Positions 31,187 through 32,692 of a DNA stretch of 64,000 bases are shown piece after piece. Position 1 is the first letter of the stretch. Each line of letters starts with the position of its first letter. The notes beneath the pieces are model-generated. The model saw only the letters and a program-made list of their open reading frames with translations, was not told the origin of the DNA and made no database searches. The position numbers and the translations under genes are program-made. The stretch spans positions 7,208 to 71,207 of the forward strand of contig CAZSQJ010000012.1 in NCBI GenBank assembly GCA_964608665.1. Reading direction: 5' to 3'. Source of the stretch: an uncultured Bacteroidales bacterium (lineage in GTDB: Bacteria > Bacteroidota > Bacteroidia > Bacteroidales > CAIXZF01).

Positions 31187-32692
31187 ATGAACGATATCCT
31201 CATCATACATGATACTTCACAACCCATCGGCCTTTCAGCGATCCCGGTAAGCGATTACCCTCTTTTCCGGGAAAGGGTTTTAATGGCTGTGGCTGATGAG
31301 AACCTGCATTGTGTCAGCTATTTTGCCTGTCCGGATGAGGGTGCCTTCCGGTTTATCTGCATCCTGGCCGATGATCTGAATCAACGGCTGTTGGTGCTGG
31401 GACACCGGGATCGGGGACCCTTGCTGTCGCTGACGGCTGACAATCCCGCATTTCATGTTTTTGAACGTGAGATCCATGAAAGTACAGGAATACTTTTTGA
31501 AGGGCATCCCTGGCTGAAACCCTTGCGTTACGGCACTGACTGCAGAAGGTCCGGTAATGGCATGGAGCAGTATCCTTTCTTCCGTATCAGCGGGGATGAA
31601 CTGCATGAGGTGGGTGTGGGACCTGTCCATGCCGGAATCATTGAACCCGGGCATTTCCGTTTCACCTGCCATGGGGAGAAAGTGCTGCACCTTGAAATGC
31701 AGCTTGGCTACCAGCACAGGGGAATTGAAAGGATGATGGAGGGCAATACCGATGGATTGCGACATGTGCTGCTTGCCGAAAGCATCGCCGGTGACTCAGT
31801 CATTGGACATGCATCCACTCATGCGGCTGTCATCGAAACCCTAAGCGGCTGCCGGATTTCCGGTACGCTTGCTGTCGAAAGGGCCGTGGCGCTTGAGCTG
31901 GAACGGATTGCCATGCACACTGGCGACGCCGCAGCGCTTTGTGCCGATGTTGCCTATCAGCTCGGACAGGTTGTTTACGAATCCCTGCGCACCATCGTGA
32001 TTAATTCAACCCAGCTCTGGTGCGGGAACCGGTTCGGAAAAGGGCTTATCAGGCCGCACGGAACATGGTTCCCCGTGAAGGAAGATCTGGGCAGGCAGAT
32101 CGTCCGTAATCTCGATACCGTGATGGAACGTATGCAGCCAATGGGCGACCGTTTGTATACGCTACCCAGTGTGGTGGCACGTTTTGATGGGACCGGCTCC
32201 GTCACCAGATCCCAGATGCTTGCCATCGGGGCGGTGGGAATGGCTGCCCGCTCGGCCGGCCTCAAGAGGGATATCCGCTGGTCTCATCCTTCCCTGCCCT
32301 GGAAAGATACAACGTTCGAACCGGTTGTGCTGGACACGGGTGACGTAATGGCAAGAGCCCTGCTTCGGAAAATGGAAACGGAACAGTCAGTCAGCCTCAT
32401 CAGACAGTGGATTGACCAATTGAGCGAACAGGCAGGGAAAACGGAACATCCTGATTATCAAAGACCACTTACCCCTAACTCCCTGGCTGTTCATCTTACC
32501 GAAGGATGGCGGGGCGAAATCTGTCATGTGGCGATCACCGACAAACAGGGTAAAATCATGTGCTACAAGATTAAAGATCCCTCCATGCATAACTGGATAG
32601 CCCTTGCCCTGGCTGTGAGAGCCCAGGAGATATCCGACTTTCCGGTCTGTAACAAAAGTTTTAACCTGTCTTATTGCGGTCACGACCTGTAA
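31187..32692 (+). CDS. HyfG/HycE-like large subunit (NuoC-NuoD fusion) lacking the [NiFe]-ligating cysteine pairs
   Basis: ORF 31085..32692. Start set at MNDILIIHD (ATG at 31187). NuoC-like FHVFEREIHESTGILFEGHPWLKPLR. NuoD/large-subunit core VGVGPVHAGIIEPGHFRFTCHGEKVLHLEMQLGYQHRGIE. Where group-4 hydrogenases have R(I/V)CG(I/V)C this reads ESIAGDS. The C-terminus reads DFPVCNKSFNLSYCGHDL where DPCxxC(T)DR is expected. Confidence 0.8.
   Translation: MNDILIIHDTSQPIGLSAIPVSDYPLFRERVLMAVADENLHCVSYFACPDEGAFRFICILADDLNQRLLVLGHRDRGPLLSLTADNPAFHVFEREIHESTGILFEGHPWLKPLRYGTDCRRSGNGMEQYPFFRISGDELHEVGVGPVHAGIIEPGHFRFTCHGEKVLHLEMQLGYQHRGIERMMEGNTDGLRHVLLAESIAGDSVIGHASTHAAVIETLSGCRISGTLAVERAVALELERIAMHTGDAAALCADVAYQLGQVVYESLRTIVINSTQLWCGNRFGKGLIRPHGTWFPVKEDLGRQIVRNLDTVMERMQPMGDRLYTLPSVVARFDGTGSVTRSQMLAIGAVGMAARSAGLKRDIRWSHPSLPWKDTTFEPVVLDTGDVMARALLRKMETEQSVSLIRQWIDQLSEQAGKTEHPDYQRPLTPNSLAVHLTEGWRGEICHVAITDKQGKIMCYKIKDPSMHNWIALALAVRAQEISDFPVCNKSFNLSYCGHDL

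Follow-up and report, generated by a model that had tools for sequence, protein, structure and literature searches.

The window analysed here, a stretch of 64,000 nucleotides (nt) of DNA from an uncultured Bacteroidales bacterium, carries a compact same-strand operon of six genes, ehrABCDLS (26219-33491, forward strand), named after the Ehr complexes (for Ech-/energy-converting hydrogenase-related). Its first four genes encode membrane proteins: ehrA (26219-28204; 661 amino acids, aa) a HyfB/HycC/NuoL-type antiporter-like subunit (Pfam Proton_antipo_M, 1.6e-50) that matches the structures of HycC (7z0s_C, 2e-63) and also MbhH; ehrB (28206-29117; 303 aa) a HycD/NuoH-type membrane anchor (NADHdh, 7.8e-27; HycD 7z0s_D, 5e-18); ehrC (29119-29748; 209 aa) a HyfE-like small membrane subunit (Oxidored_q2, NuoK-like, 3.4e-5); and ehrD (29754-31172; 472 aa) a HyfF/NuoN-type antiporter-like protein (Proton_antipo_M, 1.7e-32; MbsH 6u8y_H, 2.8e-19). 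The longest open reading frame (ORF) of ehrA opens at 26093, 42 codons upstream of the likely start at ATG 26219, which we preferred because the syntenic gene call in a relative (locus L081) has 661 aa and because of the alignment with HycC. The fifth gene, ehrL (31187-32692; 501 aa), encodes the large subunit, a NuoC-like domain fused to a HycE/NuoD-like domain (Complex1_30kDa, then Complex1_49kDa; PF00346, 1.2e-29). The sixth, ehrS (32709-33491; 260 aa), encodes a small subunit in which a HycF/NuoI-like ferredoxin domain (residues about 1-115) is fused to a HycG/MbhJ/NuoB-like domain (about 120-250), with Pfam matches to Oxidored_q6 (1.5e-14) and Fer4 and structure matches to MbhJ (8e-20), HycG (2.5e-17) and HycF (3e-6). 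The best NCBIfam matches of the operon proteins are hydrogenase-4 (Hyf) subunits, among them hydrogenase 4 subunit B for EhrA and the 'hydrogenase 4 membrane subunit' for EhrC (7.8e-16). Every match falls below its curated cutoff, so that no NCBIfam model covers these proteins.

The translation of ehrL contains VGVGPVHAGIIEPGHFRFTCHGEKVLHLEMQLGYQHRGIE, LLAESIAGDSVIGHASTHAAVIETLSG and, directly before the stop, the C-terminus ISDFPVCNKSFNLSYCGHDL. Among solved structures, the sequence of EhrL most resembles E. coli HycE (7z0s_E, 2.6e-27) and P. furiosus MbhL (6.4e-27), with Nqo4/NuoD proteins coming next. In the alignment with HycE, 'SDRVCGICGFAH' lies over 'AESIAGDSVIGH' and '...SLDPCY' over '...SFNLSY'. 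In a gapless BLASTP alignment with P0228, a true hydrogenase of the same family (36% identity), AERVCGACSFSHA lies over AESIAGDSVIGHA and NKSFNLCYSCTD over NKSFNLSYCGHD. Together the alignments place the four [NiFe] ligand columns at A201, S204, S495 and G498, none of which holds a cysteine. The first two stand in the former L1 motif ESIAGDSVIGH (31778-31810, residues 198-208), where D203, a signature of the family, lies between them; the other two stand in the former L2 motif at the C-terminus (32630-32692, residues 482-501). EhrL thus has neither the L1 motif RxCGxCxxxH of group 4 hydrogenases, which is likewise missing from all 120 close relatives described below, nor their C-terminal L2 motif DPCxxCxx(R/H). 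The original prediction, made from the DNA letters, had read the same changes (Cys-x2-Cys to Ala-x2-Ser in the core, Ser and Gly in the C-terminal ligand columns), and the HycE motifs that it gave were essentially right, save that HycE reads SLDPC and not SIDPC.

The protein ends in ...CGHDL, with a TAA stop directly after GAC CTG and the next gene beginning 16 nt downstream. Two cysteines are left near this end, C497 immediately before the last ligand column and C488 seven positions ahead of the third, which agrees with the predicted displacement of one Cys by one position and the second Cys 9 residues upstream. As predicted, there is no extension that a maturation endopeptidase could remove. 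Because its ligand columns read A/S/S/G and the C-terminal extension is missing, EhrL cannot hold a canonical [NiFe] centre, as had been proposed. A frameshift or assembly error hiding a normal C-terminus, which the original prediction had named as one of the findings that would overturn it, is ruled out by the clean stop codon, the spacing to the next gene and the ...DL ends of all 120 relatives. Nor is the loss of the motifs due to chance or sequencing error, since it is shared by 120/120 relatives and ehrL is under purifying selection (ratio of nonsynonymous to synonymous substitution rates, dN/dS, 0.12).

Compared with HycE at the level of structure, as the original prediction had suggested, EhrL proved to have the NuoD/HycE-type fold. 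HycE (7z0s_E) is the best PDB fold match of its AlphaFold2 model (mean predicted local distance difference test, pLDDT, 83.6; predicted TM score 0.88), with a Foldseek E-value of 6e-27 and a TM score of 0.83. The beta1-beta2 loop, GPVHAGIIEPGHFR (31619-31660, residues 145-158), aligns with HycE GPLHVTSDEPGHFR and is hydrogenase-like: it reads IEPGHFRF and retains the Glu that relays protons to the hydrogenase active site. We also considered a NuoD-like quinone-reductase site in place of the [NiFe] centre. The quinone-headgroup ligands, which we take to be His38 and Tyr87 of Nqo4 (T. thermophilus numbering), align with Ile151 and Gly202 of EhrL; the NuoD His and Tyr, whose presence had been raised as a possibility, are absent, and such a site is ruled out. 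In the monomer model, pLDDT drops below 50 exactly at residues 145-154 (31619-31648) and 487-501 (32645-32689), the two most conserved segments of the protein. The equivalent segments of homologues pack against the small subunit and NuoH, and the low values are consistent with segments that would take up an ordered structure only where they meet EhrS and EhrB.

The replacements are a property of a large family. When 1.84 billion cluster representatives were scanned exhaustively with HMMER, 515 matched below 1e-30, and the best 150 of these were taken; family column counts refer to the 122 of these that cover all four ligand columns. Three of the 122 are true hydrogenases (CCCC), the other 119 being without the full set of four Cys. 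An Ehr-type signature, G202-D203-[ST]204, stands in 93/122 at the place where hydrogenases read G-x-C. The C-terminal signature is [SP]DFPx-x-NKSFxLSY-x-G-x-DL, with 102/122 ending in DL, and HAG[IV]IEPGHFRF hardly varies. In the 120 cluster representatives closest to EhrL (53-81% identity), D203 is present throughout, and every protein has the same ligand replacements and ends exactly in ...DL with no tail.

Absence of the NiFe cysteines is what defines Ehr (PMC3569383, PMC10284858, PMC6349859, PMC13194489; further literature in PMC7304191 and PMC10432482). The complex was first described in Geobacter sulfurreducens, where GSU0739-0745 encode EhrA-1/A-2, B, C, D, L and S (subunit names and gene set in PMC7894505, PMC13194489). 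EhrL is a group-4-related large subunit without these cysteines, and the window has the Ehr operon layout: a NuoL/HyfB-like, a HycD-like, a HyfE-like and a second antiporter-like gene, followed by ehrL and ehrS. Geobacter Ehr shares with it the gene set and order, the ferredoxin-fused small subunit, the large subunit lacking NiFe cysteines and the G-D-[ST] and ...NKSFNLSYCGxDL signatures.

GTDB species genomes yielded at least 596 loci when scanned. The best 80 of these, which we compared, span Bacteroidota, Spirochaetota, Verrucomicrobiota, Planctomycetota, Melainabacteria and Geobacterales/Desulfuromonadia, with Alistipes, Rikenellaceae, Prolixibacteraceae, Saprospiraceae, Lentimicrobiaceae and Ancylomarina among the Bacteroidota, and nearly all have the gene order ABCDLS. 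One locus of an uncultured bacterium (L011, metagenome-assembled genome, MAG, about 10001-17222) is rearranged, with ehrL before ehrA-B-C-D and ehrS about 5 kb downstream of ehrL. Five Geobacterales/Desulfuromonadia loci (L051, L064, L077, L078, L080) carry the operon, their large subunits being 41-47% identical to EhrL with the same signatures. The Pelobacter orthologue in turn matches proteins of Geobacter spp. at 64-68% identity under generic database names, none of them 'Ehr'; the G. sulfurreducens sequence itself was outside this comparison. Since no database source uses the name Ehr, we can only infer the link from the window operon to the name-giving Geobacter complex from these sequence comparisons.

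Because gene content and order match the Geobacter operon, the NiFe columns are lost and the operon is shared with other phyla, we conclude with high confidence that the window ORF is the EhrL of an Ehr complex that cannot be a hydrogenase. We further show that Ehr descends from group 4 [NiFe] hydrogenases of the Hyf/formate hydrogenlyase (FHL) type, having lost the NiFe ligands and not gained the quinone site of NuoD. As absence of these cysteines is the defining trait of Ehr, the missing CxxC pairs alone are a known hallmark, and the large-subunit finding is not new. The original prediction was right about the [NiFe] site; it did not recognize the known family to which the protein belongs, and it missed the more unusual loss in the adjacent small subunit.

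In EhrS, all four Cys ligands of the proximal (N2-equivalent) [4Fe-4S] cluster are replaced. Alignment with MbhJ and HycG places ligands 1 and 2 at D137 and T140 (33117-33128; AGGDNSTE, SGSCNGCD in MbhJ), ligand 3 at D204 (33318-33320; GTDAISGG, GAC in the reference) and ligand 4 at N234 (33408-33410; PGNPVHP, PGCPP in the reference). Neither the proximal-cluster pattern of HycG and MbhJ (CxxC ... GxC ... PGCP) nor the cluster N2 ligands of NuoB/Nqo6 (CC ... C ... C) can be found, and all NCBIfam NuoB models score below their cutoffs. The NuoB-like domain contains no cryptic alternative Cys set either; further Cys columns among homologues are confined to positions 140 (58%) and 188 (49%), both of which are Thr in the window. 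Loss of the cluster has left the fold intact, as the NuoB-like domain of the AlphaFold2 model (pLDDT 88.2 for EhrS) superposes on MbhJ with a root-mean-square deviation of 1.7 Å.

The ferredoxin domain has also been reduced. Its first motif (CxxCxxCxxxCP) has decayed to T39..E42..L45...C50-P, and its second (C68, C71, C74, C78-P) is complete. In ferredoxins with two [4Fe-4S] clusters, three Cys of one motif and the fourth Cys of the other bind one cluster. By this ligand swap, EhrS has one complete cluster, bound by C68, C71 and C74 together with C50 (32856-32945; HycF alignment), and the other is short of three ligands. The surviving cluster is presumably the medial one, equivalent to N6b, which is bound by Cys98/101/104 and Cys63 in T. 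thermophilus Nqo9; a literature check on which NuoI motif holds N6a and which N6b gave no confirmation. Among 120 close EhrS homologues, C50, C68, C71 and C74 are all invariant, and the orphaned C78 is Cys in 34. D137 is likewise present in all 120, position 204 is D in 113 and E in 7, and position 234 is N in 118 and H in 2. Position 140 varies (C in 70, A in 24, T in 10, G in 8). This pattern is the one expected if one cluster has been kept under selection and two have been coherently lost.

Ehr of Geobacterales, Planctomycetota, Verrucomicrobiota, Spirochaetota and Melainabacteria, in contrast, keeps the proximal Cys and both ferredoxin motifs. All four proximal Cys are present in 38 Ehr small subunits, nearly all from phyla other than Bacteroidota (GGCNxCE / GACAISGG / PGCPPHP), most of them with both ferredoxin motifs, whereas 29 Bacteroidota loci read D/x/D(E)/N(A) and have lost the intact wire of two ferredoxin clusters and a proximal cluster, as has the window. 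In a neighbour-joining tree of the large subunits, the Fe-S-depleted forms make up a nearly monophyletic Bacteroidota clade. From these columns, the cofactor inventory of Ehr in this clade appears, with fairly high confidence, to be reduced to one [4Fe-4S] cluster. One Bacteroidota MAG (L017) has a large subunit nested in the depleted clade and a small subunit with CCCC and both ferredoxin motifs, a placement that could reflect a tree artefact, a horizontal replacement or more than one loss event. The small subunit of a Planctomycetota MAG (L065, downstream of 10001-11491) shows an independent partial loss of proximal ligands (S, C, E, W); because this lies outside the Bacteroidota, clusters may have been lost from Ehr more than once. 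Our literature search found no mention of Ehr in Bacteroidota or of cluster loss from the small subunit; the papers of Coppi (2005) and Marreiros (2013), said to be the founding descriptions of Ehr complexes, lay outside that search.

The operon does not look like a relic. In comparison with its syntenic counterpart in L081 (81-91% amino-acid identity), the operon gives dN/dS values of 0.14 for ehrA, 0.07 for ehrB, 0.08 for ehrC, 0.11 for ehrD and 0.15 for ehrS, besides the value for ehrL given above; two flanking genes gave 0.14 and 0.11. The key residues of the membrane arm are kept as well. EhrA retains the Glu of transmembrane helix (TM) 5 (SWELM) and the Lys of TM7 (GIKAG...HTWLPDAHP) and TM12 (HSLFKSLLF), EhrD retains the same three (FVEATT, YSTKIELFPMH, HTLIKSGLF), and EhrB keeps most acidic loop and channel residues (LVEPV, VENSRLPVDDP..LEL, DYSG). 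Purifying selection in all six genes, taken with these retained antiporter and NuoH-like residues, points to a functional, non-decaying operon.

Among known systems, E. coli FHL/hydrogenase 4 (7z0s) supplies the best sequence and fold matches of the subunits (HycE, HycC, HycD, HycG and HycF, at the values given above), and HycE and EhrL have in common an N-terminal NuoC-like fusion and a proton-relay loop with EPGH. Unlike FHL/Hyf, the window complex has no NiFe ligands, no C-terminal extension for a maturation protease and no proximal cluster; it has a single ferredoxin cluster, and its HycF and HycG counterparts are fused. No formate dehydrogenase, HycB or hyp gene lies near the operon, and the 64-kb window contains no hyp maturation or other hydrogenase genes. 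The sulfane-sulfur reductase MBS of P. furiosus (Mbx; 6u8y) is, like the window complex, a descendant of group 4 hydrogenases that has left H2 chemistry and kept a complex-I-like architecture, and its MbsH is the best PDB match of EhrD. MBS keeps three [4Fe-4S] clusters, the proximal one, with three Cys ligands, being the catalyst, and of the four NiFe Cys two remain in MbsL (PMC7684303), whereas the window complex has no Cys in any NiFe column and no Cys ligand of the proximal cluster. Complex I/NDH-1 belongs to the same fold family, with the same modular layout and antiporter-like subunits with conserved Glu and Lys; it differs in having His38/Tyr87 where EhrL has Ile151/Gly202, an N2 cluster, and NuoA/J and NuoEFG, which have no homologues here, and the NCBIfam Nuo models all score below their cutoffs. 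Mrp antiporters, finally, share MrpA/D-type subunits with the TM5 Glu and the TM7 and TM12 Lys, and EhrA matches MrpA and MrpD structures at 1e-28 to 1e-33. Mrp moves ions through its MrpA/MrpD-like subunits with no redox input, a likeness to the window complex that would be functional and is hypothetical. The window operon adds NuoH-, NuoC/D-, NuoI- and NuoB-like parts and does not have the seven-subunit MrpABCDEFG composition.

In MBH, MBS and complex I, the large-subunit pocket receives its electrons through the distal, medial and proximal clusters in turn (PMC7684303). With both neighbours gone, the surviving EhrS cluster would not form an electron-tunnelling chain joining the cytoplasmic surface with what was the active site, and a single cluster could not bridge surface and pocket, whichever of the two ferredoxin clusters it is. 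Because no such chain would be left, we propose that the complex is no longer a ferredoxin-driven oxidoreductase. It would instead act as a redox-independent cation or proton translocator in the manner of Mrp antiporters, moving ions through the two intact antiporter-like subunits and the NuoH-like channel, with the hydrophilic cap as a structural or gating module. The carboxylates D203 and E153 of EhrL and D137 and D204 of EhrS might form a protonatable or cation-binding pocket at the former NiFe/N2 site, and the remaining cluster could be structural or serve as a redox or O2 sensor. We lean slightly towards the combined explanation of Ehr identity, a cluster-depleted variant and a redox-independent translocator; the non-redox transport mechanism as such is put forward tentatively, as a reading of the lost and retained residues.

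Several points weigh against this explanation. The translocator mechanism is deduced from the loss of cofactor ligands, and the strictly conserved ligand set of one [4Fe-4S] cluster would also fit a residual redox role. One proximal-site Cys, at position 140, survives in the 70 of 120 relatives counted above, though not in the window, and the assignment of the surviving cluster as medial depends on the ligation given above for Nqo9. Genes for a redox partner could lie in another part of the genome, the co-conserved EhrL cysteines discussed below may form a relocated metal site, and MrpB, C, E, F and G have no counterparts apart from the HyfE-like protein, so that 'Mrp-like' describes a mode of action and not homology of the whole complex.

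The C-x8-C pair of EhrL, C488 and C497, had been proposed to bind a metal or form a disulfide. Both residues are invariant in the 120 closest representatives. As both are Cys in just 48/122 of the wider family and whole lineages have replaced one of them, even within the clade of the window (N488 in Alistipes and others, S497 or A497 in Prolixibacteraceae and others), the pair is not indispensable, and we rejected it as an essential metal or disulfide site. Together with C161, C279 and C446, these residues form a set of five cysteines at non-canonical positions that is co-conserved across much of the Ehr family, in Fe-S-intact and depleted forms alike. C161 is present in 99% of 70 GTDB loci; all five are missing in 25/114 Ehr representatives and in true hydrogenases.

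Redox-driven pumping is generally assumed for canonical Ehr complexes, and the window complex might still work in this way. A donor, ferredoxin or another, would then reduce the lone [4Fe-4S] cluster, and some acceptor would be reduced nearby or at a thiol/disulfide or relocated metal site of EhrL (C488/C497, possibly with C161/C279/C446). The invariance of the four cluster ligands, the conservation of C488 and C497 in the closest large subunits and the co-conservation of the five cysteines would all be accounted for, and canonical Ehr, with its complete three-cluster wire, is presumably an oxidoreductase. In MBS, moreover, the proximal cluster is itself the catalyst (PMC7684303). That very site, which adjoins the large-subunit pocket in MBH, MBS and complex I, has D, T, D and N in the window and so not one Cys ligand, and the ferredoxin cluster on the surface side is lost too. 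Of the candidate EhrL cysteines, C488 or C497 is replaced singly in whole lineages of the same clade, and all five are absent from 25/114 representatives. No gene for an electron-input partner lies beside the operon in the window or in about 30 members of the clade, and no conserved neighbouring electron-input module was found in the Bacteroidota clade. We regard a redox-driven pump as improbable on this evidence. The view that the operon is a decaying hydrogenase relic, or an artefact of assembly or frameshift, is contradicted by the data and very improbable. A Geobacter paper does call Ehr 'nonfunctional' as a hydrogenase and expects relaxed selection (PMC13194489), but dN/dS of 0.07-0.15 across the six genes equals that of neighbouring housekeeping-type genes, the ORFs are unbroken and end identically in 120/120 relatives, the operon is kept in at least 596 GTDB species matches, the motifs around the lost sites are invariant, and the clean stop codon and downstream gene spacing leave no sign of an artefact.

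Complex-I-related modules that hydrate CO2, such as cyanobacterial NDH-1 with CupA, and DabAB suggest by analogy another possibility, in which the former NiFe/N2 pocket would be a non-redox catalytic or ligand site, for example for a divalent cation or Zn held by Asp/Asn/Cys/His, and its chemistry, be it hydration, hydrolysis or the binding of a ligand, would be linked to the flow of ions in the membrane arm. The Cys ligands have indeed been replaced non-randomly, by the near-invariant Asp137, Asp/Glu204 and Asn234, the family signature Asp203 stands beside the retained proton-relay Glu153 and His208 of hydrogenases, and the peripheral arm is under strong purifying selection. Yet no similarity to known hydratase or hydrolase sites was found, there are no accessory genes nearby, and the geometry of the pocket is unreliable where pLDDT falls below 50 (EhrL 145-154 and 487-501); this possibility appears, if anything, a little less probable than a redox pump. 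Returning to the redox-independent translocator, a bolder form of it, which we think rather unlikely, would hold that a machine of the complex-I/hydrogenase type gave up redox chemistry and that its carboxylate/amide pocket (EhrL D203 and E153; EhrS D137, D/E204 and N234) binds a proton, a cation or a small ligand that gates or drives ion movement. In a still bolder reading, the relocated cysteines C161, C279, C446, C488 and C497 would build a new metal centre.

Directly upstream of ehr operons whose Fe-S ligands are intact, we noticed a same-strand gene for a protein of about 225 aa with HTH_17 and PTS_EIIA_2 domains (PtsN-like, with a DNA-binding domain). It occurs at 21 canonical Ehr loci (L030:4347-5024; L078:2079-2756; L035-L037, L042, L043, L046, L048, L050, L052, L053, L057, L058, L062, L064, L065, L067, L068, L071 and L080) and is found neither in the window nor at any Fe-S-depleted Bacteroidota locus. 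Through this gene, canonical Ehr may be linked to regulation of the PTS-Ntr type, which is tied to K+ homeostasis. One of three conserved ORF clusters next to ehr operons (cluster 5) had been a candidate electron-input module and proved to be a regulator adjoining Fe-S-intact operons only; the other two, numbered 6 and 7, turned out to be antisense artefacts from loci of high GC content. A promoter and terminator scan gave counts at the level of shuffled sequence, with promoter patterns that do not cover Bacteroidota. The genes flanking the window operon are unrelated to it and encode a GH20 hexosaminidase, an M24 peptidase, an acyl-CoA ligase and surface proteins sorted by the type IX secretion system (T9SS). 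Farther away, at 234-17488 on the reverse strand, lies a run of very large secreted proteins (2275, 951, 452, 406 and 1643 aa). In the four other than the 2275-aa ORF, Pfam finds CARDB, thrombospondin type 3, DUF7619 and a weak, below-cutoff T9SS sorting domain, and the same four give a dockerin match above the cutoff and a marginal cohesin match just below it; modules of the cohesin/dockerin type are unusual for a Bacteroidota genome.

What is added to the known hallmark of Ehr, and is the more interesting result, is that a large Bacteroidota clade, gut genera included (Alistipes, Rikenellaceae), has also lost the N2-equivalent and entry clusters under purifying selection. Public names for the homologues P0004-P0120 and P0272-P0390 read 'Ni,Fe-hydrogenase III large/small subunit', 'NADH-quinone oxidoreductase subunit C' or '4Fe-4S binding protein', and none flags the missing metal ligands. 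Because annotations ignore these losses, metabolic and genome surveys may miscount Ehr proteins as H2 or respiratory capacity, when they are neither. The depleted Bacteroidota clade also amounts to a natural experiment on complex I and its coupling machinery: should its Ehr complex still translocate ions, the conformational and electrostatic apparatus that joins the NuoD/NuoB/NuoH interface to the antiporter-like subunits would be drivable by something other than electron transfer, and the clade would, if this is true, provide the first demonstrated case of a complex-I-like peripheral arm that functions with no electron-transfer chain. The family has reportedly been known since the work of Coppi in 2005, and the Bacteroidota clade would offer a tractable route to the long-standing question of what Ehr does.

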